This document shows positions 1-12,650 of a DNA stretch of 12,650 nt, piece by piece. Made by a program: the position numbers and the translations under genes. The notes below the pieces were generated by a model. The model was not told where the DNA came from, did no database searches, and was given only the letters and a program-made list of their open reading frames with translations. The stretch's first letter is position 1. Every line of letters begins with the position of its first letter. The DNA is from a virus (Duplodnaviria > Heunggongvirae > Uroviricota > Caudoviricetes): the IMG/VR virus record IMGVR_UViG_2850756110_000008; one strand, given 5' to 3'.

Positions 1-294
1 GTGGCGCACGTCTTCGGTGAACGCACTCTGGCCACACTGGAGCGTCTTCTGAGCCTGCTGTCGGCCTTTGAGGTCGTGGTATGGATGACGGATGGCTGGC
101 CGCTGTATGAATCACGCCTGAAGGGAAAGCTGCACGTTATCAGCAAGCGTTACACTCAGCGCATTGAGCGACATAATCTGAATCTGAGACAACATCTGGC
201 AAGGCTGGGACGGAAGTCACTGTCGTTCTCAAAATCGGTGGAGCTGCATGACAAGGTCATCGGGCATTATCTGAACATAAAACACTATCAGTAA
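1..294 (+). CDS. insB: IS1 transposase InsB, C-terminal fragment (5' end outside window)
   Basis: Translation ...[70 protein letters not shown] is near-identical to the InsB C-terminus from memory. Confidence 0.9.
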
Positions 295-309
295 GTTGGA
301 GTCATTACC
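1..309 (+). mobile_element. IS1, right-end portion (element continues upstream of window start)
   Basis: ORF 1..294 is the C-terminal 97 aa of IS1 InsB. Its stop codon lies inside a terminal repeat ATCAGTAAGTTGGAGTCATTACC at 287-309 that matches the IS1 inverted repeat as I recall it. Confidence 0.9.
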
Positions 310-321
310 CAAGTAAATAAA

Positions 322-341
322 AACCCGCTCAACAGCGGGTT
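322..341 (-). terminator. Rho-independent terminator (tR'-like) downstream of the Q gene
   Basis: An 8-bp stem (322-329 pairing 334-341) with a 4-nt loop; on the minus strand it is followed by TTTATTTACTT. It lies about 110 nt downstream of the Q stop codon. Confidence 0.6.
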
Positions 342-374
342 CGTGAAAATTATCAACGGCAGACATACAAAGCC

Positions 375-416
375 CATCGTTGAGAAAATCTTATCCATGT
401 TTTTTGAAAAATGCAA
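375..416 (-). promoter_or_regulatory. Late promoter PR'-like with qut-like pause element
   Basis: On the minus strand: TTGCAT (plus 416-411), 17-bp spacer, TAAGAT (plus 393-388), then AACGAT at about +1 to +6. This resembles the -10-like sigma-dependent pause element of lambda PR' as I recall it. Position immediately after Q is as expected. Confidence 0.45.
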
Positions 417-447
417 GCTTCATGTCGCCATCTTCGGCGAAAATCAC

Positions 448-1200
448 TTATCTCGTCACCTTTCTCAATTGTGTTTCAGCATATGCTTCTTCCTGCCAGC
501 ACTTTGTTACTAGTTTATCAATTACGTCTGCATATCCTTTGTACCACTGATAATCAGTCAGGTCTGGAACCAGCTTCTGGACATGACGTCGTGCCAGTGT
601 AGTTGGTAAACGGCTAAACCGGTTTCCATTGCAACGCCCACAAATCTTATAAACAGGCGTGCCATGAAGCCGGGTCCTTTTTTCATCCAGGACAATACCT
701 TTACCCTTACACCCTCTGCACGCTGTGCTGACTTCTCCCTTACCATGACAATGCTGACATAGTTCCTTCACCCACTCTTCCTTGATAACAGATTCCCCGC
801 TTCTGGAGTGTTTCACCACCTCGCGCAATACATTATGAAATCCAGTACCAGCACAATGCTCACAGCGAGCCTTACTTGCCGCAGACCTAGAATAATCAGC
901 AAAGGCAAAATTCACAAGGTAAGGAATGATCTGTAGCCGGGTTTCTTCACTCAATTTATTCAATGTCGGGTTATCCAGTGCCATCGCGTAATTGAGCAGA
1001 CCTTCAATCGCAAACTGAGGATCCTGAACACCAACTTTTGCCAGGAATAAGGCAAACCCAAGCGGTGCTTTCGACTGCACCATCCCCTGCGCAGCCATCA
1101 CATCCGTAATCGTTAAACCACCAGAGCCTGTCGCCGGTGCGTCATCGCTCAGTTTTGGAGATTTCGGGGAGTAATATTTCGGTAAGGCTTCAAGGTTCAT
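448..1200 (-). CDS. Q: Lambdoid antitermination protein Q (82/Qin-type, 250 aa)
   Basis: 250-aa ORF with GGAG 7-8 nt upstream of ATG. Cys/His-rich zinc-binding region (CEHCAGTG...CQHCHGKGE...CRGCKGKG...CGRCNG) and overall resemblance to prophage Q homologues (QuuQ-like). Located at the end of the nin operon, before PR'/tR'. Confidence 0.85.
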   Translation of the reverse strand: MNLEALPKYYSPKSPKLSDDAPATGSGGLTITDVMAAQGMVQSKAPLGFALFLAKVGVQDPQFAIEGLLNYAMALDNPTLNKLSEETRLQIIPYLVNFAFADYSRSAASKARCEHCAGTGFHNVLREVVKHSRSGESVIKEEWVKELCQHCHGKGEVSTACRGCKGKGIVLDEKRTRLHGTPVYKICGRCNGNRFSRLPTTLARRHVQKLVPDLTDYQWYKGYADVIDKLVTKCWQEEAYAETQLRKVTR

Positions 1201-1213
1201 GCTCGTTCTCCAC

Positions 1214-1924
1214 TTACGCCAGTACGCCTATTGCCAGCGCACGATCGATAAAACGAAATATCAGCTCCAGCTGGGAACCATACTTCTCTTCAAATGCCAC
1301 GGTATCCGCATGCAGCTCGTCGTGATGCTTTCTGCACAAAGGCAACACAAAGAGGTCATGCGCTTTTGTACCCATTCCCCCCTGACCGTGGCCTATCAGG
1401 TGGAGGGGATCATCAGCAGGCTTTCCACAACATGCACACGGCTGTGTCTTAACCCAGCGTGTGTACTTTTCATTAACCCAGCGGCGACGTTTTGGGCGTA
1501 ACATAAAAGACTCCGGCGACTCCGGATCCACTTTCAGCGCCAGCACCTTTTTCACCTTATCCTGGATGATGCTGGTGGCAGGAACCGAAGGCACAAGGTC
1601 ACTTTCCCGGGTGACAGACGGCACAACAGGCTTCGGTAATCTCAGTGCCTTACGGGCTGCACTTTCCGGTAAGGCATCCGCCAGGTCATTACGAATCAGC
1701 CACCAGCACAGTTCCGGCATTGTCACAACGTGACTATCATCAAAACCGAGATCCCGACGCACAACAGACAACACCCAGCGGGCACAGTTATCCGTTGCCA
1801 TTGATTCCAGCCGTTCCGTGAACTGATCGCGCAGCTGGTTATCGCAGTGCCAGCACAGACGGATTGCGCCGGCGCGTGTCGCATTGTTGTCATGTTCTCG
1901 CTGTGCCAGTCGGAATGAGGCCAC
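1214..1924 (-). CDS. YdfU/DUF968-like phage protein, C-terminal part (HNH-like Zn motif); apparently frameshifted relative to 1723..2166
   Basis: C-terminus CACCGKPADDPLHLIGHGQGG...LCRKHHDELH is typical of the DUF968 family found just upstream of Q in Qin-like prophages. The ORF opens with GTG at 1924 with no plausible RBS, and its first 39 codons look like genuine protein (CWHCDNQ). Confidence 0.6.
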   Translation of the reverse strand: MASFRLAQREHDNNATRAGAIRLCWHCDNQLRDQFTERLESMATDNCARWVLSVVRRDLGFDDSHVVTMPELCWWLIRNDLADALPESAARKALRLPKPVVPSVTRESDLVPSVPATSIIQDKVKKVLALKVDPESPESFMLRPKRRRWVNEKYTRWVKTQPCACCGKPADDPLHLIGHGQGGMGTKAHDLFVLPLCRKHHDELHADTVAFEEKYGSQLELIFRFIDRALAIGVLA

Positions 1925-2166
1925 TGGCAGCCTTTTTCACGAAGTAACCAGCTTTCAAGACATTCCACGCCACCAGCACGACGGATCACTGCCTCATTGC
2001 GGAACACGGCCCGAACGTCAGGATCATCCGCCAGCGGTTGTGATGCCGCCGGAACAGCACCACTGGCGAAAGATGAATAACGTTCCGGCTCAGGCTCCAG
2101 CAGGACACGCCCCTGCATAAACAGGGGCATCAGCTCTGAACTTGGTCTGAACAATACGATCCCCAT
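1723..2166 (-). CDS. N-terminal fragment of the same DUF968-like gene (different frame)
   Basis: Begins 40 nt after the KilA-N gene stop. The first ~85 residues look protein-like; downstream of about 1920 the frame becomes Cys-rich low-complexity junk, while the other frame opens at 1924. Likely a single gene with a 1-nt indel near 1895-1925. Confidence 0.4.
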   Translation of the reverse strand: MGIVLFRPSSELMPLFMQGRVLLEPEPERYSSFASGAVPAASQPLADDPDVRAVFRNEAVIRRAGGVECLESWLLREKGCQWPHSDWHSENMTTMRHAPAQSVCAGTAITSCAISSRNGWNQWQRITVPAGCCLLCVGISVLMIVTL

Positions 2167-2208
2167 ACGCGGGGCAATTTCAGGGGCAGTAGTGCTCTCA
2201 CGGTCACC

Positions 2209-3006
2209 TCAATGAACGGTATCGAGCAGCTTTAACAGCTCAGGGAATCGGGATTCGAAGAAATGCGGCTGCGTCTCACGCGGATTTGCGGGACTGGTGA
2301 TATTCTTGCCGAACATGCAGCCTTTCGCTGTCAGCGACCAGAATTTTTTGATGTTGTTAATCGCTGTACGGCTGTATCGTTCGCGCTGTTCGACGATCCC
2401 CAGCTTCGCCATCTGGTGATATGCCTGATTAGCCGTAAGGCGGATACCATACTGCTTCAGCAGTGCACTCAGTGACAGCGTGGGGCGGCTTGAGCCATCA
2501 GGCGCGTCAGCAGGAGCATCAATGGCATAGCGCGGTGCCAGATTCGGTAAGCCAACAGCCTCCTGGAGTTTCTGACAGGCTCCAAGCACTGAAGAGTTAG
2601 ACAGGTTTAATTCCCGGCGCATAAAGTCCAGCAGAATCACACCAGCCTGCATCTTGTCAGCAGTCTGTCCGGATAATTTTTCCGGTGCACTGGTTACCAT
2701 GTCGAAAGTACGGATCACCTTCAGATGGAATGACGGGCTGATCCACATTGCATAGGCATACACCAGTTCTTTGCAGACATACGTCCCTTGGTTATTTCCG
2801 CCACGAATAACGTTAACTGGTTCTATATTGACCGAGTTGCAAATCTGCAACTCGCTTATTAAACGTTCAGTTTGCTCATTGCGGAGCCAGAATGCAGGCT
2901 TATGCTTATCCAGAGAACCAGCAGCCCTGTGCAGATCGTTCAGGCTGTAACGCCCATAAGCATCACGACGAACTTCAATTCCATCAATAACCATCAGATT
3001 ATTCAT
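2209..3006 (-). CDS. KilA-N domain protein (Roi/antirepressor-like)
   Basis: N-terminus MVIDGIEVRRDAYGRYSLNDLHRAAG...GTYVCKELVYAYAMWISPSFHLKVI fits the KilA-N DNA-binding domain pattern. Position between rusA and Q is typical of lambdoid nin regions. Confidence 0.75.
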   Translation of the reverse strand: MNNLMVIDGIEVRRDAYGRYSLNDLHRAAGSLDKHKPAFWLRNEQTERLISELQICNSVNIEPVNVIRGGNNQGTYVCKELVYAYAMWISPSFHLKVIRTFDMVTSAPEKLSGQTADKMQAGVILLDFMRRELNLSNSSVLGACQKLQEAVGLPNLAPRYAIDAPADAPDGSSRPTLSLSALLKQYGIRLTANQAYHQMAKLGIVEQRERYSRTAINNIKKFWSLTAKGCMFGKNITSPANPRETQPHFFESRFPELLKLLDTVH

Positions 3007-3025
3007 ACTTCGTTTCTCCTCTTAA

Positions 3026-3415
3026 TCAGGCTGCTGCACCCGCCGGTTTCTCGTACTTACTGATAGTGATCTCGACCTTCCCTTCCGGGATAACCGGTCC
3101 CCACTCCACCAGCATTCTTTTCACCTGACTGTCGTCTTCCCACACACCCGCGTGGGTCAGGGCGTCAAACAGCGCCTTGTTATAGTTGTTCAGATCGCGG
3201 ATCCGGTTATCCGGAGGAAACAACACGATCTCCACTGAAGCAGGTGCCGACGTTGGTTTTGGCAGACGACGTAACTGCTCAACTATTGCTGCACACGCCG
3301 CGCTCTGGAATTTGCGCCCCGCTGCGCTTATCAGGCTCTTACCAGCAAACGCCCCTTTGTTGGGGTGTCGCCAGTACGTGTTCACGCTGGGCGGAAAAGG
3401 CAGTATTAGCTTCAT
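3026..3415 (-). CDS. rusA: Crossover junction endodeoxyribonuclease RusA (Holliday junction resolvase)
   Basis: Motifs LPFPPSVNTYWR and DLNNYNKALFDALTHAGVWEDDSQV match the RusA family. Start overlaps the upstream stop as ATGA. Confidence 0.85.
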   Translation of the reverse strand: MKLILPFPPSVNTYWRHPNKGAFAGKSLISAAGRKFQSAACAAIVEQLRRLPKPTSAPASVEIVLFPPDNRIRDLNNYNKALFDALTHAGVWEDDSQVKRMLVEWGPVIPEGKVEITISKYEKPAGAAA

Positions 3416-3738
3416 ACTTTCAGGCCCCTCTCATGTAACCAGTGGGCTGCACGCAGCTTGGCGTTTTCCTCACCGGCAAGCAGTGAGCGGATAATCCCGA
3501 CCGCCTCGCTGTCGTCGTCCTTCACCGCGGTATGAAGAGTGATACCACGGGCCACACCACGCTTTATCGTGATGACGCCTTTTTTCTCCAGTGCTCTAAG
3601 ATGCTCCACCGCTGCATTCACTGAACGGTATCCCAGCATGGTTGCCACCTCCTGATTGGTTGGCGGGAAGCCACGTTCTTTCTGGTAAGAAATCAGCATA
3701 TCCAGCACCTGCTGCTGGCATTGAGTTAACGTCGTCAT
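3412..3738 (-). CDS. LexA N-terminal DNA-binding-domain-only protein (no peptidase domain)
   Basis: The 108-aa product aligns by eye with the LexA winged-helix domain (LTxxQQxVxDxI......GxPPTxxExAxxLGxRSxNAAxEHLxALxxKGVIxIxxGxxRGIxL). It lacks the Ala-Gly cleavage site and Ser/Lys peptidase domain. ATGA overlaps with both neighbours. Confidence 0.75.
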   Translation of the reverse strand: MTTLTQCQQQVLDMLISYQKERGFPPTNQEVATMLGYRSVNAAVEHLRALEKKGVITIKRGVARGITLHTAVKDDDSEAVGIIRSLLAGEENAKLRAAHWLHERGLKV

Positions 3739-4388
3739 GCCGCCATCTCCCTGACAAGTTTTTCTGCCTGCTGGCGAACTTGCGCCAGAAAGGCCTCACC
3801 ACATGCCTCAAGTTCATCGCGCCCGATGTAGCTGATTGCCGGTCCCTTCCAGGTCTTGTCGAAAACGGCAATAGCACCAGCGAAGAAAGCACCGGTTGGC
3901 ACCTGCTTCTCGTCTTTCGGGATAAACCAGGCAGGCAGTTCAAAACCAATACGCCCGCGAATAAAAGCAATATGATCCGCATCTTCCGGCCACCACACTT
4001 CGCTGGTGGCAGCTTTGATCAGGAAAACATAGCGCCCGCCCTTATCACGCATGGCACTGGCATGTTTCATGATGTAACGCATGCCGGTGATGTATTGCCC
4101 CTCATGCTGACTGGCGCGGCTGTATGGAGGATTTCCAAAGGCAGCACCTTTAAGCTCCGCAAGACGTTCTGACCAGTCATGCGCCAGCGCGTTGTCTTCC
4201 GCCGTGTAATACGCGGCACATTTGGCGTTATCACCGTCAGTAAACAGATCCAGAACAAACGGGCCAAACAGGGTGTTAATTCCCCAGAAAATGTTGTCCG
4301 GTGTGCGCCACTGATCGCCCACTTCCTTCAGTTCATGGGCTGGTTTGTTTCGCAACTCCACCAGCGCCTGGCAATATTTATTACTCAT
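3735..4388 (-). CDS. Phage Dam-type DNA N6-adenine methyltransferase
   Basis: Catalytic NPPY motif (GNPPYSRA) and overall similarity to phage Dam (PF05869-type) proteins. Start taken at the ATG at 4388, which overlaps the upstream stop (TAATG), rather than the ORF-track start at 4421. Confidence 0.8.
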   Translation of the reverse strand: MSNKYCQALVELRNKPAHELKEVGDQWRTPDNIFWGINTLFGPFVLDLFTDGDNAKCAAYYTAEDNALAHDWSERLAELKGAAFGNPPYSRASQHEGQYITGMRYIMKHASAMRDKGGRYVFLIKAATSEVWWPEDADHIAFIRGRIGFELPAWFIPKDEKQVPTGAFFAGAIAVFDKTWKGPAISYIGRDELEACGEAFLAQVRQQAEKLVREMAA

Positions 4389-4882
4389 TAAGCCCCCACG
4401 TAATTCCCTGACAGATACCACTCATCACCCGATACAGCGCGCTTGCTGCTTTTCCGTAAGCACCGCTCACGACGCGCCAGAAAATTGTTTCGTTCTGGCT
4501 GGGAGTGGCTTTCACGGAATGCCGCCATCCACACCGTTGCAGCACGACGGTATAAGCCCCTGGACTCCAGTTCTTCAGCCTGGCGGGTCAGGCACAAAAT
4601 CACCCGGGGACCGTTAGTGCCGACATAGAAATTGCGCACAGGTCTGGTTTCTCGAACTGATTGTGGTCCCGGTTCCTGCGCTCTCTCAGTCAGGCGCGGG
4701 AAATGTCTGCGTGTATCTCCTTCACAACGGTGAGCCACACGCCCACTCTGACGTAACTTGCTTGCAGACTGCAGAACGCGCTGCCGTGAGTAACCTGCAA
4801 AAGCATCCGCAATGTCTCCGGAAGTACACCCCGGATGGGCTTCAATGAATTTCTGAACGTCATTCAAAAGACTCATGCTCAC
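4388..4882 (-). CDS. PerC/Pch-like regulator with N-terminal winged-helix-like region
   Basis: C-terminal half carries AEELESRGLYRRAATVWMAAF, the same motif as the PerC-like ORF at 10141 (AEELESKGLYRRAAARWMEVM). Start is either GTG at 4882 or ATG at 4876. Translationally coupled to neighbours. Confidence 0.6.
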   Translation of the reverse strand: MSMSLLNDVQKFIEAHPGCTSGDIADAFAGYSRQRVLQSASKLRQSGRVAHRCEGDTRRHFPRLTERAQEPGPQSVRETRPVRNFYVGTNGPRVILCLTRQAEELESRGLYRRAATVWMAAFRESHSQPERNNFLARRERCLRKSSKRAVSGDEWYLSGNYVGA

Positions 4883-5445
4883 CCCCTGAATCCTGCCGGG
4901 ATCTGGCTGTAGTCCACGTTGTCGTAACTGGCTTTGAAGTACGGGTCTTCACGTTTTTCTGTGTGCGTGCTGACGGACGGCGATAAGCGCAGGGAAAGCT
5001 CATCCCATTTTTCCCGCAACTTCGACGGGCTGAGCACGTTACGGCACCAGAACGGATCGCGGCTGACGCGGCTGTACATCTCGCAGATTTGTTTGTGAGT
5101 ACGGCCATCCTGTACACACATCAGGCGAATTTCGTTTGCCCAGGCTGTCCAGTTCGGTTCTTTGGGACGAACCACCTCGCCGTCACATTCGGCAGCCTGC
5201 TCGTACAGGGCGATGATTTTTTTCCAGAGCCACTGTGCGCAGGTCAAATCATCCTGCGTCCCCCACTGGCGCTTTTTAGGGCTGAATACAACCGCATCAG
5301 GATGGCGAGTTAAAAAATCCTGTTCAGCCGTCTGCGTGTCCGGTTGCGAAGCGTCCGGACGAGAAGGTTTTTTATCTGACGGATCATGTTTTGATTTTAC
5401 TGACGGATCCCCGCCAGATTCTGACGGGTGAAAACCCGCTTTTTT
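4879..5445 (-). CDS. Phage early/nin-region protein, 5'-truncated by IS66-family insertion (function unknown)
   Basis: The ORF runs open up to and into the IS66 terminal repeat (the track's TTG start at 5460 is inside IS sequence). Translation is protein-like (…CAQWLWKKIIALYEQAAECDGEVV…). First gene of the coupled operon. Confidence 0.5.
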   Translation of the reverse strand, partial: KKAGFHPSESGGDPSVKSKHDPSDKKPSRPDASQPDTQTAEQDFLTRHPDAVVFSPKKRQWGTQDDLTCAQWLWKKIIALYEQAAECDGEVVRPKEPNWTAWANEIRLMCVQDGRTHKQICEMYSRVSRDPFWCRNVLSPSKLREKWDELSLRLSPSVSTHTEKREDPYFKASYDNVDYSQIPAGFRG

Positions 5446-5482
5446 GTAAGCGTGCAGCAAGAACCGTATTGACGGGGATGTG

Positions 5483-7021
5483 TTATTCAGTCGGCAGTGC
5501 TACGCGCCAGGGGAGCAGTTCGCCGACCCGGTTTATCGGCCAGTCGGCTATGACGTCAAGGACATAGCGGAGGTAGCTTTCTGGCTCCACTCCGTTCAGT
5601 TTGCACGTCCCGATCAGGCTGTACAGCAGCGCTCCCCGCTCTCCTCCATGATCCGAACCGAAGAACAGGTAGTTTTTGCGGCCCAGACTGACCATCCGCA
5701 ACGCATTTTCAGCGATGTTATTGTCCGCCTCAGCCCAGCCATCATCTGCATAGTACGTCAGCGCCGGCCACTGGTTCAGGGCGTATGCGAACGCTTTCGC
5801 CAGTTCTGAGTGTCGCGACAGGGTTTTCATCTTTTCACGCAGCCAGCTTTCCAGGGATTTCAGCAGCGGTTTCGTTTTCAACTGACGTTCGGCAAGGCGC
5901 TGCTCCGCCGTCATTCCCCTTATCTCTGCCTCGATGGCGTACAGTTCGCCGATCCGTTTCAGCGCTTCCTCCGTCAGGGCTGACGGGGTGCGAACGTGCA
6001 CATCGTGGATTTTACGGCGGGCGTGAGCCCAACAGGCGGCTTCCGTTATCCGGCCATCCCGGTACAGCTCGTTGAACCCGGCGTATGCATCCGCCTGCAG
6101 TACACCACTGAACCCCGCAAGATGGGTCTGCGGATGGATGCCTTTTCTGTCCGGGCTGTAAGCGAACCACACCGCCGGCGCCAGCGTTGACCCGGCGTTA
6201 CGGTCGTCACGAACGTAGGTCCATAACCGCCCGGTCTTCGTTTTCTTATTGCCTGGCAACAGCACCGGGACAGGCGTGTCATCAGCATGGAGCTTACCGT
6301 CAGTCAGCACATAGTCCTGAAGCGCTTCTTCCAGCGGTGACAGTAGCCGGCAGCATGCATCCACCCAGCCCGACAGCAGTGAACGACTCAGCTCCACGCC
6401 CTGGCGGCCGTACATTTCAGACTGGCGGTACAGCGGGGTGTGCTCTGCATACTTTGAGATCAGCACGCGGGCCAGCAGCCCCGGTCCTGCGATACCCCGC
6501 TCGATGGGCCGTGAAGGCGCGGGGGCCTGCACGATGGCATCGCACTGAGTACAGGCATGCTTTTCACGTACAGTCCGGATAACCCGGAAGACGCTGCGCA
6601 TCAACTCCAGCTGTTCGGCGGCATCCTCACCCGGATAGCTCAGTGAGCCTCCACATTCCGGGCAGCATGACGCTGCCGGCAGCAGCCGTTTTTCATCGCG
6701 GGGGAGTGATTCGGGGAACGGTTTGCGGGTGCGGGTTTGACGCAGCGGGCGCTGCACGGCCGGGTCGTCAACCCGACCGGTAAGGGTATCACTTTCTTTC
6801 TGAAGTGCCTTCAGGTCAGCTTCCATCTGTGCGATACGACGGGAGACTTTTTCGGAGCGGCTGCCGAAGTTCATCCGGCGCAGCTTATCCAGCTGTGCCT
6901 GCAGATGGTCTATTTCGCGTTCACGCTCGTTCAGCTTTTCCAGCAGGGCACGGTTCAGCGCCTCCTGTTCGGCAAGGAGACGTTTCAGTGCATTGATATC
7001 GTCAGGAAGTGAGCTGCTCAT
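5483..7021 (-). CDS. IS66-family transposase (TnpC/orf3)
   Basis: 512 aa with N-terminal coiled-coil/leucine zipper, CxxC...CxxC zinc finger (CPECGG...CTQC) and conserved LHADDTPV and TGRLWTY motifs. Confidence 0.9.
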
Positions 7022-7069
7022 ACCGGGTATATTACCAGGCTCATTCAGCGTCGACCAGGATAAAGAGGC

Positions 7070-7417
7070 TTACAACATAGTCAGGGACGTAAGCAGTCTT
7101 TTAGGCTGCCGCCAGTCGATACCTTCAAGGAGCATCGCCAGCTGTGCCGGTGTGAGGAACACTTTGCCATCCCGGGCTGACGGCCAGGCGAAGCGGCCGC
7201 GCTCCAGCCGTTTGGTCAGCAGACACAGTCCATCGCCGGTAGACCAGAGGAGCTTTACCTGACTGCCATTACGCCCACGGAAGATAAAAACGTGACCTGA
7301 CATCGGATCGTCTTTCAGCGTCGTCTGCACCTTTGCCGCCAGGCCGTTGAAGCCATTTCTCATATCGGTGATACCGGCAACCAGCCAAATTTTGGTCCCG
7401 GAAGGTAACGGGATCAT
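7070..7417 (-). CDS. IS66 Orf2 (TnpB) accessory protein
   Basis: 115-aa protein (…LVAGITDMRNGFNGLAAKVQ…LWSTGDGLCLLTKRLERGRF…) typical of the IS66 orf2 family. ATGA overlap with orf1. Confidence 0.85.
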   Translation of the reverse strand: MIPLPSGTKIWLVAGITDMRNGFNGLAAKVQTTLKDDPMSGHVFIFRGRNGSQVKLLWSTGDGLCLLTKRLERGRFAWPSARDGKVFLTPAQLAMLLEGIDWRQPKRLLTSLTML

Positions 7418-7794
7418 CGCTTCAGTTCCTGTATCAGCAGAGTCAGGAGCTTTTCGCTGACATTGCCATTGAAGCGGAGCGTCCCGTGCCGGAACGTTAC
7501 CTCACAGCTGATACTGAGGGTTTCCGGATCCTCTGCGAGCGATTCTGGCTGTTCGGCAGCTGCATCGAGAGTCACAGGAAGTAGCTGGGGGCTCTCTGAA
7601 GAAGGTAATAGCAGCTTTCCCTCGCGCCATTGTTGTCGCCATTTGAACAACAGATTGGCGTTAATGCCATTTTCAAGAGCAAGTTTTGAGATGGATATCC
7701 CGGGTTCACAGGAGGCAGCAACGAGCTGCTGTTTAAATTCGGGAGGATAATTAGGGCAGCCTTTTCGCCTGCCGGGATTCACATTTTTCTGCAT
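7414..7794 (-). CDS. IS66 Orf1 (TnpA) accessory protein
   Basis: Helix-turn-helix-like small protein in the first position of the IS66 operon. ATG at 7794 (MQKNVNPGRRK…) preferred; the ORF-track start at 7815 is a GTG. Confidence 0.8.
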   Translation of the reverse strand: MQKNVNPGRRKGCPNYPPEFKQQLVAASCEPGISISKLALENGINANLLFKWRQQWREGKLLLPSSESPQLLPVTLDAAAEQPESLAEDPETLSISCEVTFRHGTLRFNGNVSEKLLTLLIQELKR

Positions 7795-7946
7795 ATCTGA
7801 CACTTTGGTTCCCACTACTTATTTGGTGGACACCACTTTGTCTAATTCGTCAGATTCTGACCAGACGGTTCAGGCTGTACGCTGATATGACTTTCCGTGT
7901 CAAACCGGAATCTCTAATTTTGACGATTTTCTTTTTAGGTTTAATT

Positions 7947-8129
7947 CCCTGAGGGCGACGTAGCAGTAAATCCGACGGTGAATCACGCTGATATTCGCGG
8001 GTTGGATACCGCATTACAGAGGTCCGTCATATGAGCCTGCCACTTTCTTACGTCGCGAATCAGCTTTGTTCCGCCGTCGCCAAGCGCTAACGTGGGTTAC
8101 TCTTGTACCGGGCTACGTCGCCTTCAGGG
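7947..8129. ncRNA. Candidate IS110-family bridge-RNA-like structured noncoding element (strand undetermined)
   Basis: An 18-bp inverted repeat (7947-7964 CCCTGAGGGCGACGTAGC; 8112-8129 GCTACGTCGCCTTCAGGG, one G/U-compatible mismatch) encloses 147 nt. Inside, ACGCTGATAT (7985-7994) is identical to the 10 nt spanning the IS66-terminus/IS110-end junction (7879-7888). Confidence 0.3.
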
Positions 8130-8148
8130 AACTGGTTATTCTCATTTT

Positions 8149-9276
8149 TTATTTGTGACATTGTGGTTGTTGTGCGACAGACATTGCTATTCGGCCCATA
8201 TCCCAGATAAAACCCGCCAGCTCACGTGCAACAGCAACAATTGTAATATTGACATTCTTTCCTTTGGCCTGAAGTTTTCGATACCTCTTACAGAGCCTGA
8301 GTTGAGCATCCCATGCTCTGTCAATGACGGGGCGGGGTAAATTTTCCTGCCTTTTTTGTATTGCCGGACTGATGCGTGCCGGATGACGGTAACTCCACGC
8401 TGCCTCGACCAATAGCTTTCTGGCATAGCTGTTTCCGGCTTTGGTAATGCTGCCCTGATGTCTGCTTCCACCCGATGAATATTCTGATGGCGTGATACCA
8501 AACCATGACATCAGTTGTCGTGGATGTTCAAAACGGGTCAGATCACCCAGTTCAGAAATTAATCCAACCGCAGTAATAAACTGAATCCCTCGCATGGCTT
8601 GCAGCGCCTCTACTACCGGATACAGCCTCCATTCGGTAACGGCCTCCTTCAGGGCGGATTCCAGCCGTTCACATTGTGCCTGCCGGTCTTCTATTGTACG
8701 ACGGTGTTCGTCAAAAGCTAATTGTCGCCAGGGACTTTCGAATGAGTATTTGCTGAGCCAGCGTCGGTGTGCAGGGCCCCAATCTGCTCGCCCGACATAA
8801 TGGACCCCATGAACCAGAAGAAACGATTTCAGACGTTGCCTTGCATGCCGTAAATCATCGCGGGCAGATGCCCATGCCCGGGCCAAATCCCGGAATGCCT
8901 CATCTTCAATGCCGGGTACGTAGACAGCAGAAAGATCTCCTGCACGCAGTGAACGCACAAGTCTGATGGCATCACGGCGATCGGTTTTAACCCGCTCCCC
9001 CGGTTTTTTCGGGATAAGTGAGGGGGCGCAGACCATGCAGTCAAAACCGGATTTCACCAGCCGACGATAAAGTCCATAACCACAGGGCCCCGCTTCATAA
9101 ACGATACTGACCTGCGATGACTTTGACCTGAGACGTTTACAAAGATTCTGAATATCAGTAGGTGATGTGCCAATTTTACCCATCAGTTCAACAGGTTCTG
9201 AATTGATAGCATAAGCGACAGTAATCGATTCTTTGTGAACATCTAACCCGACGTACAATGTGTTATTGTTGTTCAT
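8149..9276 (-). CDS. IS110-family transposase / DEDD recombinase
   Basis: 375 aa from the ATG at 9276, with GGAGG 7 nt upstream. N-terminal RuvC-like DEDD motifs (YVGLDVHK, IVYEAG, KTDRRDA) and C-terminal Tnp domain with conserved Ser (GITPSEYSSGGS). The ORF track extends the start to 9324, which lacks an RBS. Confidence 0.85.
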   Translation of the reverse strand: MNNNNTLYVGLDVHKESITVAYAINSEPVELMGKIGTSPTDIQNLCKRLRSKSSQVSIVYEAGPCGYGLYRRLVKSGFDCMVCAPSLIPKKPGERVKTDRRDAIRLVRSLRAGDLSAVYVPGIEDEAFRDLARAWASARDDLRHARQRLKSFLLVHGVHYVGRADWGPAHRRWLSKYSFESPWRQLAFDEHRRTIEDRQAQCERLESALKEAVTEWRLYPVVEALQAMRGIQFITAVGLISELGDLTRFEHPRQLMSWFGITPSEYSSGGSRHQGSITKAGNSYARKLLVEAAWSYRHPARISPAIQKRQENLPRPVIDRAWDAQLRLCKRYRKLQAKGKNVNITIVAVARELAGFIWDMGRIAMSVAQQPQCHK

Positions 9277-9426
9277 GCTGGCCTCCGTGGTGGAAATACC
9301 GGGGGGTAGCAACAGCTCACCCATGCGGCTCTGACAACGATGTTAACCCGCGTTAAATATCCCACGTTGGCCAGCATCTGTCTCACGGAAAGTCATACTG
9401 CCTTACTTTCCAATGGGCACTCATGT

Positions 9427-9882
9427 TTATACGCTGACCTTACAATCAATCACCGCTTTTAAATTTTCAGCATTGCTTCCCTGACGCTTCCACGCGCTGT
9501 AAATATCTTTATCCCACGCTTTACCAGCTTTTGTTTGATAGCCTGCTTCATTGATCCGTTCAGCTATCACACGCCCATTATCAAATCCCTGTTGGATGGT
9601 ATCGGCAATGATCTTTATAACTGCCGTTTCGTTATATGGCTTTGGTGGGATGTTCGGCTTTCCGGCAATAAGCGACGCAGCGGCTTTTTCCATGCGCTCC
9701 ACCAGCCCAAGCATTCGTGAATCAATAGACTTTTCCGGCTGTCCCAGCTTCATGCGAATCGCATCAACAAGCCAGGAGGTTTTATCCCCTCCAGAAGCGA
9801 GAACAGACCGATTAAACTCATCCTGCAATTCAGATGGGATGCGGAACGCGATCAGATTAGATTTGCTCATTGCAAAGACCAT
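9427..9882 (-). CDS. Hypothetical protein, possibly ribbon-helix-helix (Arc-like) DNA-binding at the N-terminus
   Basis: 151-aa protein-like ORF divergent from the PerC-like gene. N-terminus NLIAFRIPSELQDEFNRSVLASGGDKTSWLVDAIRMKL resembles RHH folds. A palindromic operator-like site lies 20-50 bp upstream. Stop is 30 bp from the IS110 end, so the C-terminus may be altered. Confidence 0.5.
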   Translation of the reverse strand: MVFAMSKSNLIAFRIPSELQDEFNRSVLASGGDKTSWLVDAIRMKLGQPEKSIDSRMLGLVERMEKAAASLIAGKPNIPPKPYNETAVIKIIADTIQQGFDNGRVIAERINEAGYQTKAGKAWDKDIYSAWKRQGSNAENLKAVIDCKVSV

Positions 9883-9899
9883 ATCAGTGAGTAATATCC

Positions 9900-9931
9900 A
9901 TACAGTATACCACTGTATAACACTGTTATAC
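9900..9931. promoter_or_regulatory. Overlapping palindromic operator-like sites upstream of the 151-aa gene
   Basis: ATACAGT-N5-ACTGTAT (9900-9918) and a perfect 17-bp palindrome GTATAACA-C-TGTTATAC (9915-9931). A minus-strand TATACT -10-like hexamer overlaps. Confidence 0.4.
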
Positions 9932-9983
9932 GCTCAAATATCAGCCAGAAAATAACGGACCAATCACAAAGCTATCGCTGTGT

Positions 9984-10104
9984 TGTTGGTTCAGAGCTGG
10001 GCTGTGTTGGTTCAAAATGAGTTGATGTTGGTTCAATATTTTAGAAAAACATAATAAAAACAACGATCTTTACAAATTGAACCAACTGAACCAACTGAAC
10101 CAAC
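9984..10104. repeat. Iteron-like array: six copies of GTTGGTTCA (3 direct at 21-bp spacing, 42-bp AT-rich spacer, 3 inverted in 9-bp tandem)
   Basis: TGTTGGTTCA at 9984-9993, 10005-10014 and 10026-10035. AT-rich 10036-10077. TGAACCAAC at 10078-10086, 10087-10095 and 10096-10104. Confidence 0.7.
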
Positions 10105-10135
10105 ACCTTTTTGCTTATCTATATAATCTGAGAGG
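10096..10135 (+). promoter_or_regulatory. Putative promoter and RBS of the PerC-like gene, overlapped by the inverted repeats
   Basis: Perfect TATAAT at 10122-10127 and GAGAGG at 10130-10135 before the ATG at 10141. The -35 region coincides with the TGAACCAAC repeats. Confidence 0.3.
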
Positions 10136-10140
10136 CAGAA

Positions 10141-10422
10141 ATGATAAGGGACAGGAAAGCTGAAGAGCTGGAGTCAAAAGGGCTATACCGGAGAGCTGCC
10201 GCACGATGGATGGAAGTCATGCTGTTATGCACCGAGGACGATGATCGGGAATGGATAAAGCGCCGCCGTGAAACGTGTCTGGAGAACGTGAAGCGCCCGC
10301 CCGTGAAGGTTGAGGAATTTGGCGACCTGCATAAAGCTGTTACCGAAACGCAACACCGCATGGGGATAGCGCAACCGAACGGTAACGCCTTCCGGTTAAA
10401 TGGCGGCAAGAGGCAAAGGTAG
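10141..10422 (+). CDS. PerC family transcriptional activator-like protein
   Basis: 93 aa with the N-terminal motif RDRKAEELESKGLYRRAAARWMEV characteristic of PerC/Pch proteins as I recall them. Good RBS. Confidence 0.7.
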   Translation: MIRDRKAEELESKGLYRRAAARWMEVMLLCTEDDDREWIKRRRETCLENVKRPPVKVEEFGDLHKAVTETQHRMGIAQPNGNAFRLNGGKRQR

Positions 10423-10718
10423 ACCACCAGAGGGAAATCATCCTCTGGCTGGCGGTTTCTGGTATTTCGGGACAAGTACGCGCGCGCGTAGCACCCAATC
10501 GGTGAGGAAATAGCGGCGACCTGAATGGTCAAAATCACAACGCAGCTATCCCCGTAAGCAGCGCTTAACGGAATAGCAGTAACCTGAATCCAGTGGGGAG
10601 GGGTAGTCAAATCTCTACAGCCCTGACTATCCGGGACTGCCCGCCCCATCGTTTTTTTATACCCGCGAAAAATGAAATTTAATCCGGGCGTGTTTCATCC
10701 TTCCAGAGGGTATGACGT

Positions 10719-10904
10719 ATGACACCACGCGAAATAGCCTTATTGACCATCGCCAAACTTGAGCACGGAGGCCACCAGCTTACACAGGCAGATCAACGGG
10801 AGATAGAACGATCAGTTAATGCCGATATAGCCCGGCGCGACAGGTTCCGCGAAATGATGCGAGCACCTGCCTACCAGTGGAAGAAGCCAGCGCCGCGCAG
10901 GTAG
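10719..10904 (+). CDS. Hypothetical small protein (61 aa)
   Basis: GAGGG 8 nt upstream of ATG; charged helical-looking product; no family recognised. Confidence 0.4.
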   Translation: MTPREIALLTIAKLEHGGHQLTQADQREIERSVNADIARRDRFREMMRAPAYQWKKPAPRR

Positions 10905-11024
10905 ATATGGGATTATTCCACATGTACCTTATGCGTATTAAGCAAATTTCCTTTATTCACCTTTACAGAATTGTGAGTACGTCAGTATCGTTATCCTTCC
11001 GATTCGCATTTATTCAGGATTTGC

Positions 11025-11567
11025 ATGTACCAGCTAAAGATAACCATCCGAGACAGCAAACCACCTATATGGCGGCGTGTGCTGGTTCCAGAGCAAATCC
11101 CCTTTAGTAAACTTCATGCCGTGATCCAGTTAGCTTTTGGCTGGAATGACGAACACCTGTATATGTTCGAGAAAGGGCGTAAAGGTGATCCAGGTAGCGA
11201 GTATCGCGTATGGGGTGAGGATGAAAGCATGGGTAACGCGGCAATCACGCCACTATGGGCGGCGCTCCAGAATGAGGGTGACAAGCTGGTTTACACGTAT
11301 GACTTTGGCGACTGGTGGGATTGCGTCATTGTGCTGGAGAAGCAAACACACGATACGAGTAATCAGCCCATTAGCTGCCTGCGTGGGAAAGGCACCACCC
11401 CGGCGGAAAACTCAGGCGGCTTGCATGGTTACAATGAATTGCTATTACAGGCCAGAGAGTCTGATAATCCTGAGCAGGCCGAGATCCACAATTTCCTGAT
11501 GCTGGATATTGAACGCCGGGTTTACGACCTGAGCCGCATCAACGACAGATTGCAGGCTATTAACTGA
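11025..11567 (+). CDS. Plasmid pRiA4b ORF-3-like family protein
   Basis: N-terminus MYQLKITIRDSKPPIWRRVLVPEQIPFSKLHAVIQLAFGWNDEHLYMF matches the conserved start of PF07929-type proteins as I recall them. Confidence 0.65.
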   Translation: MYQLKITIRDSKPPIWRRVLVPEQIPFSKLHAVIQLAFGWNDEHLYMFEKGRKGDPGSEYRVWGEDESMGNAAITPLWAALQNEGDKLVYTYDFGDWWDCVIVLEKQTHDTSNQPISCLRGKGTTPAENSGGLHGYNELLLQARESDNPEQAEIHNFLMLDIERRVYDLSRINDRLQAIN

Positions 11568-11919
11568 CCCGCATGTATTCACCTGATATTGCGTTGTCAG
11601 CGCCGCCAGTATCGCGCATAACAGCGCACTGACCGGGTAAACCGTAGCGCACGACCGTTGCGTTAGTATCACCGCCGCGCCGTATCTGGCGCGATTCATA
11701 CACTGTCACCCGCTCAAGCAGTCCACCAGCAACCATGCTTTCCAGTGTGCGCCGGGTTGATTCGAGCTGGTGACGCTTATCGAACGACACCATGCCATGA
11801 AGCAGGTAGGCCACACCCGACACATCGAACGGCGGCGCACCAATCTCACCAGTCACCCATTCGAGGTTATCCGGTTCAAAGTAGCTAAGTATCTCTTTTT
11901 TGCGACTGGTCATTCTCAT
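11560..11919 (-). CDS. Hypothetical protein (119 aa), convergent with and overlapping the previous gene by 8 bp
   Basis: Protein-like composition; AGGA 11 nt upstream of ATG at 11919; no family recognised. Confidence 0.45.
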   Translation of the reverse strand: MRMTSRKKEILSYFEPDNLEWVTGEIGAPPFDVSGVAYLLHGMVSFDKRHQLESTRRTLESMVAGGLLERVTVYESRQIRRGGDTNATVVRYGLPGQCAVMRDTGGADNAISGEYMRVS

Positions 11920-12146
11920 GGCTGGCTGATTCCTTATTGTGGGATAGCACTATCATACAATAAGTGGGTTAAAGGGAGAGCGTTACCGCCTGATATGCTG
12001 TATGAATAACAACCAAATTTCAGGGGCGGAAAAAGATATGGGGGTACTTTTGGGGGTATCTATAAAAAATGAACAATAAAAAAGGCAACAAAAACAAAGC
12101 TTATCGCCTATGTGTATTGTTCCTATTATCCATTTAAATCAATAAG

Positions 12147-12650
12147 TTACACATCATTAGTACGTTCCTTATTTCTTGACTGGGACAAATTTGGGACCGA
12201 TGGGTTCAGAATCGAGTCTATTTGCCGTGCGTGTTCGGTAAGGTGATTAGGTGCGAGGTGAGCATATCGACGAACCATTTCGATAGACTCCCAGCCTCCC
12301 ATTTCCTGTAACACTGATAACGGGACTCCGGCTTGAACCAGCCAACTTGCCCAGGTGTGTCTCAAGTCGTGAAATCTGAAATCATCAATACCTGCTCGTC
12401 TCAGCGCCGCTTTCCAGGCTGTGTTTGCGTCATACCGCATCTTCCTGACTGTTGGCGCTTTCGTTCCGTCTGGTTTGGTACAGCTTTCCTTATACACAAA
12501 TACCCAACGGTGATGATTCCCGATTTGTTTTTTCAATACGCGACATGCAGTATCATTCAGCGCAACGCCAATTGCGCGGTTTGATTTACTCTCTTCCGGG
12601 TTTATCCATGCCACCCGGTGAGGTGTACTGGCAATAGCGGACACTACCAT
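12147..12650 (-). CDS. Tyrosine-type phage integrase, C-terminal catalytic domain (5' end beyond window)
   Basis: Conserved HDLRHTWAS (His-x-x-Arg) and catalytic Tyr context EMVRRYAHL. The ORF is open to the window edge. Confidence 0.9.

Follow-up and report, generated by a model that had tools for sequence, protein, structure and literature searches.

The 296-bp stretch at positions 10423–10718 of a 12,650-nucleotide (nt) viral sequence (IMG/VR record IMGVR_UViG_2850756110_000008; the whole sequence is called the window here) is the gap between a gene for a PerC-family regulator (10141–10422) and a 61-amino-acid (aa) open reading frame (ORF; 10719–10904). The stretch is very probably not an RNA gene but the part of a truncated EcCIMP1-type phage satellite that carries the DNA-packaging signal, with a full cohesive-end (cos) site of the SfV/SfI/SfII type. 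EcCIMP1 is a 19,963-bp phage-inducible chromosomal island (PICI) of E. coli MP1, located in tRNA-Thr with the attachment (att) core TCCTATTATC (Pick, Stadel, Raivio 2025, PMC11773190). RefSeq annotation places no gene in 10423–10718, and a 176-aa antisense ORF is merely the antisense frame of the PerC gene staying open. The original prediction described the stretch as noncoding with conspicuous elements, and this description stands, since all four elements are present and no RefSeq gene lies there. The features that carry the cos assignment are the following.

10595..10690, plus strand: complete SfV/SfI/SfII/SfIV-type cos region, consisting of a left flank, the cohesive end and a flank proximal to the small terminase gene (terS), from blastn and alignment.
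10638..10647, plus strand: cosN, the 10-nt cohesive-end sequence TGCCCGCCCC, identical to the gap at the SfI virion ends and occurring once in the window.
10634..10682, plus strand: 49-nt block GGACTGCCCGCCCCATCGTTTTTTTATACCCGCGAAAAATGAAATTTAA, identical to the phages in the alignment, with T7 (10652–10658) and A5 (10668–10672).

What is the evidence for a phage cos site? The cohesive end of SfI is known from sequencing the ends of virion DNA, which gave the 10-nt gap TGCCCGCCCC (PMC3636060), and SfI, SfII, SfIV and SfV are reported to have a common cos. In a blastn search against phage genomes, window positions ~10595–10692 match the ends of phage records (SfV 4–61, SfIV, SfI 2–44 and SfII 22–119); ST64B also matches the cos region, at 40073–40149, the last 77 bases of its record. 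For the alignment, the end of the SfV record was joined to its start and set beside SfII, phage SKA5, a prophage of O157:H7 and a second satellite. In phages, this sequence sits between the gene for an HNH endonuclease and a P27-family terS, and window 10595–10690 can be aligned over the full HNH-terS intergenic region of SfV, SfII, SKA5 and the O157 prophage. The homology sets in ~20 nt past the stop codon of the phage HNH gene and breaks off ~10 nt short of the terS ribosome-binding site; neither the alignment nor tblastx found HNH or terS coding remnants flanking the cassette. The left flank of the site is 80–95% identical to SfV/SfI/SfII/SfIV-type phages and carries a G-rich element. The right side, 10634–10682, is the presumed small-terminase recognition side of cos, by analogy with HK97. 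The minimal site of HK97 TerS lies at +15 to +29 from the cut and includes a T/A tract (PMC11331095); HK97 has the same HNH-cos-terS-terL layout with a T/A tract at a similar distance, an architectural analogy only. Because cosN and the 49-nt block are identical to the phages, the “G/C-rich segment followed by T7” of the original prediction is cosN with the terS-proximal flank, not a terminator. The segment does exist, with the T7 run at 10652–10658, and it is the core of a functional cis-element; it is the terminator-like reading that falls away.

The same site is widespread among phages. In IMG/VR, the 24-nt core occurs at 121 sites, ~117 of which are followed by terS and 2 of which have a satellite context, and the right flank of the window's site recurs unchanged at at least 105 phage sites. 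A left-flank variant nearly the same as that of the satellite is also present in a terS-linked phage (contig L083), so the satellite cos is a faithful phage cos rather than a decayed one. Among the phage and satellite variants of the left flank, inspection by eye for compensatory changes revealed no consistent pairing. A scan of the contigs with an 18-nt cos core returned mostly chance matches in G+C-rich genomes, with relevant matches only in Kluyvera and Shigella flexneri. As a separate observation, one IMG/VR contig (L053) has two phage-type cos copies (3527–3550 and 6398–6421), each followed by terS, 2.9 kb apart. While the cohesive-end 10-mer and the 49-nt block are identical between the satellite and SfV/SfI/SfII/SfIV, the surroundings differ: the phage site lies between the HNH gene and terS, whereas the satellite site lies between the PerC-family gene and the 61-aa ORF, with no packaging genes. 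Intact relatives of the element have no HNH or terminase gene either, and it is this different setting that identifies the site as a hijacked copy rather than a phage's own.

The island to which the stretch belongs can be recognized from its right end. Over window 10005–12130, identity to the EcCIMP1 right end is 99.0%, and the homology stops exactly at 12130; the two share the att core and the PerC gene, and the 296-bp stretch itself differs from EcCIMP1 solely by one missing G in the G-run of the left flank. This deletion, at ~10599 in the GGGGAGGGGG tract, is unique when compared with all other satellite copies examined. Strain MP1 has one copy only of this cos. Excision of EcCIMP1 and its transfer by the P22-like phage Kapi1 have been shown experimentally, with very inefficient transfer at about 5e3 particles/ml, and its authors describe the packaging mechanism as hard to define; the words “cos” and “pac” are absent from their paper (PMC11773190). 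The island in the window has been cut at ~9406 by an IS110-family insertion sequence (IS), so that the last ~2.7 kb remain (about 9406–12130), a remnant without int, alpA and primase genes. Hence, the window differs from EcCIMP1 in holding only the right-end remnant, and next to this remnant stands an SfII-type prophage where EcCIMP1 has the MarR/vat island. Two features mark this junction.

12121..12130, plus strand: att core TCCTATTATC, junction between the satellite right end and the prophage; the single match in the window, and equal to the EcCIMP1 core.
12147..12650, minus strand: 3' part of an integrase gene, with 98.7% aa identity to SfI/SfII/SfIV and 96.8% to SfV (tblastn); Pfam Phage_integrase.

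The integrase fragment is the start of a prophage of the very type whose cos the satellite carries. SfI/SfII/SfIV/SfV-type phages integrate at thrW (PMC3636060). With an integrase of the SfI/SfII/SfIV type directly after the att core, the satellite and the cos-matching phage use the same thrW attachment site; no tRNA gene is present in the window. The cos in the window is thus a stranded but essentially intact site beside an SfII-type prophage.

Intact relatives of the island are ~20 kb long and generally have the order thrW-int-alpA-...-primase-...-PerC-cos-61aa-pRiA4b-attR. For example, the element of E. coli CE0032f begins with proA, tRNA-Thr, an integrase, DUF6387, an AlpA-type helix-turn-helix protein, AntA/B, DUF4222, Ash and small genes, and continues with a DUF5906 primase, two genes for P22-like ejection proteins, three minus-strand cargo genes, PerC and cos. 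Its right end runs from cos through the 61-aa ORF, pRiA4b ORF-3 and a 119-aa gene to attR and paoD, and the whole element is ~20 kb with no capsid, lysis or terminase genes. The hallmarks of a PICI (integrase, AlpA and primase, with no structural, lysis or terminase genes, and ~10–20 kb between att repeats) are all found in EcCIMP1 and in the CE0032f element; the window has the right end and the att core. The same cos cassette also precedes this 61-aa ORF in elements with unrelated sequence further upstream. In E. coli YZ22MPE6, it is preceded by a P4-family primase, a single-stranded DNA-binding protein (SSB) and two hypothetical genes, with no PerC, and in Kluyvera intermedia by a primase, SSB, PerC and a 1.1-kb insert that contains a 203-aa ORF. 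E. coli and Kluyvera satellites have an identical 49-nt core, with unrelated sequence to its left. The cos-bearing stretch as a whole is found in 253 of 5,426 complete E. coli genomes, and still more of them have the cos core together with the 61-aa gene.

How would such a site be used? When a phage with a matching module of HNH endonuclease, P27-family TerS and TerL enters lytic growth, an intact island would excise and replicate into concatemers. The phage terminase would then bind and cut the island cos as if it were phage DNA, and island DNA would fill the phage capsids. An island dimer (2 x 19,963 bp = 39.9 kb) would be about the size of one SfI-SfIV genome (37.1–41.5 kb). As the recognition side is 100% identical to that of the phage, no adaptor protein of the Rpp type would be needed.

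A satellite that bears its helper's cos is an already known kind of system. The closest functional parallel is SaPIbov5 of S. aureus, an island that is reported to be packaged by the cos phages phi12 and phiSLT using the phage HNH, TerS and TerL (Quiles-Puchalt 2014). SaPIbov5 is likewise a satellite without a terminase of its own that bears the helper's cos and depends on an HNH-associated terminase. It differs in its Gram-positive host, in its unrelated sequence and in encoding the capsid-size determinant Ccm, of which no equivalent was identified here. EcCICFT073 has lambda/phi80-type cos1/cos2 sites with a divergent cosB; an Rpp-TerS heterocomplex reads this cosB, to which HK97 is insensitive (Fillol-Salom 2018, 2019). 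It is also an E. coli PICI with cos downstream of the replication genes, and it is packaged as multimers in full-size helper capsids; here, in contrast, the cos is not lambda-like and its recognition side is fully identical to the phage. The pair of a divergent cosB and an Rpp gene that marks Rpp-type cos PICIs was not found. No Rpp-like protein was detected, in that the 61-aa ORF matches no PDB chain; this was not a direct comparison with Rpp sequences.

The stretch may contain a second packaging signal, to the left of cos.

10465..10488, plus strand: TTTCGrGACmAGTACGCGCrCG, a repeated motif present here in one copy that includes the palindrome at 10477–10490; candidate mimic of a pac site.

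The palindrome, TACGCGCGCGCGTA, had been noticed in the original prediction and is present, at 10477–10490 rather than 10478–10491. EcCIMP1-like elements have 4–5 copies of the motif, all on the same strand, and a Kluyvera relative has 3. The motif matches nt 18873–18894 of Kapi1, within terS, and reads FRDKYARA against FRDKYAKA in TerS; Kapi1 TerS belongs to Pfam Sf6_terminase. A degenerate 21-mer has 126 matches in IMG/VR, 80 of them inside Sf6-type terS genes and ~38 being noncoding satellite copies. The copy in the window matches some terS alleles at 26 of 29 positions, and the Kluyvera variant, GACCAGTACGCGCAC, also occurs in another Sf6-type terS allele, where it reads FRDQYAHARE. A BLAST search of all phages with one 44-nt motif copy gave chance-level matches only, so it is pattern scans that link the motif to terS, and the profile of synonymous variation along terS is not distinctive. 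Within the motif, the (CG)n run at 10479–10484 is polymorphic: the window and MP1 have (CG)4, P15-25 has one CG unit fewer, and in CE0032f an A breaks up the run. A further observation concerns the reading frame. Past the PerC TAG codon, the PerC frame reads TTRGKSSSGWRFLVFRDKYARA and then reaches a stop (window 10423–10491), so that the terS-like motif is in the same frame as PerC; this may be chance (1 in 3), or it may reflect a C-terminal extension, either a former one or one made by read-through.

P22-like phages have their pac site inside terS (P22 gene 3). The pac site of Sf6 is reportedly inside gene 1 (terS) as well, a placement attributed to Leavitt et al. 2013. Because the motif matches a segment of terS and P22-like phages keep pac inside terS, the copies may, tentatively, be pac-site mimics for the Sf6-type small terminase of helpers of the Kapi1 type. 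The match covers a ~25–35-nt segment of Sf6-type terS, the kind of place where pac is found, while the satellite copies differ from true pac sites in being noncoding and multiple. It is similarly conceivable, and no more secure, that the stretch holds two packaging signals for two unrelated helper families: an SfV-type cos and an Sf6-type pac mimic. In a separate observation, EcCIMP1-type satellites carry homologues of P22-like ejection/injection genes, namely a DNA ejection protein, a lytic transglycosylase-domain protein and DUF2824 (L010 2835–6406; L165 12681–17849; L009 238–5406). Genes for ejection proteins are an unusual satellite cargo, which fits adaptation to P22-like virions.

A different role for the motif and its sister copies would be as an operator for an island regulator (AlpA, PerC or a ribbon-helix-helix protein) or as a source of antisense RNA against the terS mRNA of the helper. 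Repeated motifs on the same strand are typical of operators, and three of the EcCIMP1-like copies lie between minus-strand genes, so transcription antisense to the sense of terS is possible. A match to terS would be unexpected for an operator, yet 80 of the 126 IMG/VR matches fall in Sf6-type terS and variant motifs match variant terS alleles; in addition, the window copy lies downstream of PerC in sense orientation. Operator or antisense roles are rather unlikely.

Several points weigh against the assignment of the stretch as a packaging region with an SfV-type cos. First, Kapi1, the only helper demonstrated for EcCIMP1, is a headful phage of the P22/Sf6 kind and has no similar cos, although the lack of an SfV-type cos in Kapi1 fits the very low Kapi1-mediated transfer of EcCIMP1. 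Second, SfV TerS (Pfam Terminase_4) has no detectable sequence similarity to HK97 TerS, so the TerS site is placed by analogy. Third, the SfV record begins 7 nt before the SfI 10-mer, which makes the exact cut positions uncertain. Fourth, the copy in the window lacks 1 nt of the left-flank G-run when compared with EcCIMP1, and the island that bears it is truncated and presumably immobile. Fifth, we infer packaging as a dimer from sizes. Finally, cleavage and packaging at this site, in any satellite that carries it, are predictions from sequence.

Could the cos-like segment instead be a dead relic, a scar from the island having recombined with an SfV-type prophage at their shared thrW site, with no role in the life cycle? 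The island and SfII-type prophages use the same attachment site and stand in tandem here, the region has been heavily rearranged by IS elements, and the sole experimentally shown helper does not use this cos. Set against this, the borders of the cassette are those of the phage intergenic region with no HNH or terS coding remnants beside it, its 49-nt core is the same in E. coli and Kluyvera satellites despite the unrelated sequence to the left, it keeps its place in satellite variants that differ in their replication modules, and several hundred E. coli genomes contain it. A cassette this precise, conserved across different backbones and genera, makes a dead scar improbable. The preferred reading of a hijacked phage cos also accommodates part of an earlier guess, that the stretch might be a recombination site. 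This was the nearest of the functions proposed, in that cos is a site for site-specific cleavage and packaging, by terminase; it is not the target of a recombinase, and the att core lies 1.4 kb rightward.

The other elements of the stretch are less informative.

10427..10448, plus strand: hairpin with a 7-bp stem and an 8-nt loop, just 3' of the PerC stop; not conserved in the Kluyvera unit.
10509..10589, plus strand: two 18-nt imperfect direct repeats (10509–10526 and 10572–10589, 83% identical, containing ACCTGAAT) with their spacer.

The hairpin, CCAGAGG-N8-CCTCTGG, is real, with its position corrected from 10428–10449 to 10427–10448. For the repeat ACCTGAAT, the copy at 10582 is confirmed and the other copy is at 10519 rather than 10529; the direct repeats at 10509–10589 are lineage-specific. 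Chance levels were taken from 2000 dinucleotide-preserving shuffles of the 296 bp: 11% have a 7-bp hairpin, 22% have an 8-mer that recurs in direct orientation within 100 nt, and 2.4% have a palindrome of 14 bp. Single elements are thus close to chance level and not significant in themselves, and homology is what counts. RNA folds of the whole region and its sub-regions make the short hairpin alone stand out (−15.5 kcal/mol and z = −3.3 when folded alone; z = −1.98 for the whole stretch). The segment before the T7 run folds with only −5.6 kcal/mol (z = −0.7), with no terminator-type stem beside the T run, and a consensus scan for terminators and promoters found no terminator-like site and no sigma-70-like promoter inside 10423–10718. 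The hairpin may be a weak transcript end. A small RNA or structured leader, as first suggested, or a structured 3' untranslated region, whose hairpin and U7 segment would terminate or regulate transcription of PerC or the 61-aa ORF, is very improbable: the stable hairpin after the PerC stop, the whole-region fold and the position between two co-oriented genes would suit it, but an Rfam scan gave nothing relevant at the gathering threshold or at E <= 10, terminator geometry is lacking, a hairpin of this size arises in about one shuffle in nine and is absent from the homologous Kluyvera unit, and the U7 segment is identical to sequence in the phage late operon between HNH and terS.

The left 174 bp of the stretch are confined to the 253 E. 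coli genomes, with copies at least 95% identical (a near-clonal lineage), and the left ~170 bp have no homologue among phage genomes (blastn) or related loci; other sequence takes their place in YZ22MPE6 and Kluyvera. A decayed HNH or other gene was considered for this part and rejected, as a tblastx comparison with the SfV end and with related loci found no match. The left ~170 bp are a lineage-specific spacer or PerC 3' region.

The genes and sites around the stretch are as follows.

9984..10105: origin-like structure upstream of PerC, with three TGTTGGTTCA repeats spaced 21 bp apart, an AT-rich spacer of ~36 bp and three inverted TGAACCAAC repeats.
10141..10422, plus strand: PerC-family regulator gene, homologue of EcCIMP1_025 (Pfam PerC, E = 3.7e-30; WP_000617443 in MP1).
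10719..10904, plus strand: conserved 61-aa ORF, at the place where terS starts in the phages (PHROG 7271, function unknown).
11025–11567, plus strand: pRiA4b ORF-3 family gene, right-end cargo (Pfam PRiA4_ORF3, E = 1e-42).
11560–11919, minus strand: 119-aa gene, right-end cargo; EcCIMP1 and its relatives have both cargo genes at their right ends as well.

The 61-aa ORF family has 115 homologues (cluster representatives) across Enterobacterales, down to ~56% identity, usually near the right end of primase-bearing islands, and the window copy has only synonymous differences from those of Kluyvera and YZ22MPE6. It has no match in Pfam, PDB or PADLOC. A role as an Rpp-like or cos-coupled factor was considered and rejected on these grounds and because Serratia and Leclercia homologues have no SfV-type cos upstream; the latter means that the 61-aa ORF is not obligatorily tied to cos. 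PADLOC found no defence-system match among five island proteins. The origin-like structure has an 82.7% identical copy just downstream of the EcCIMP1 primase gene (L165 18496–18603), so the island has two such sites, and the pair is reminiscent of P4 ori/crr or SaPI ori. In Kluyvera and Serratia islands, a 189–203-aa ORF precedes the 61-aa gene and tandem TTCGCAGT or (A/T)GCGCA repeats, such as cgcagttaatgcgcagtaattcgcagttaatgcgcagtaattcgcag, lie upstream (L020 6470–6560; L161 7140–7330). The tandem TTCGCAGT repeats may be a further iteron or operator set.

The left part of the window, 1–9400, is a mosaic.

1–294: IS1 fragment.
448–1200, minus strand: Q antiterminator, lambdoid.
1214–1924, minus strand: DUF968, lambdoid.
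2209–3006, minus strand: KilA-N, lambdoid.
3026–3415, minus strand: RusA, lambdoid.
3735–4421, minus strand: Dam-type methylase, lambdoid.
4388–4882, minus strand: second PerC-domain protein.
5483–7815: IS66 element.
8149–9324: IS110-family transposase.

None of the complete E. coli genomes covers at least 80% of the window, which points to a rearranged locus, rich in IS elements and Shigella-like. Genes of the Q region share 97% identity with regions that lie ~5 kb away from SfV-type cos sites in one Shigella flexneri genome (L032, L039).

What are the implications of an SfV-type cos in these satellites? An HNH-associated cos of this type seems to be unreported for EcCIMP1, a published PICI, and for the many islands related to it. 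For annotation, a “structured intergenic region” should be compared with phage termini before an RNA is proposed. First, EcCIMP1-like islands are common in E. coli, and the SfV-type cos makes the open question of how EcCIMP1 is packaged directly testable. Second, if the assignment is true, one would expect efficient help from the serotype-converting Sf phages and their relatives in E. coli, which use the same thrW site, and transfer would depend on cos, HNH and TerS. Third, this would be the first E. coli satellite with an HNH-associated cos and without an adaptor, a Gram-negative counterpart of SaPIbov5. Fourth, should the pac mimics also prove true, EcCIMP1-type islands, which carry P22-like ejection genes as well, would be dual-helper satellites that could ride either a cos myovirus/siphovirus or a headful podovirus. 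Finally, the PerC protein of EcCIMP1 has been published as a regulator that silences the enterocyte effacement locus (LEE) (PMC11773190), and the cos site would tie this LEE-silencing regulator to the serotype-converting phages of Shigella and E. coli as its vehicles.

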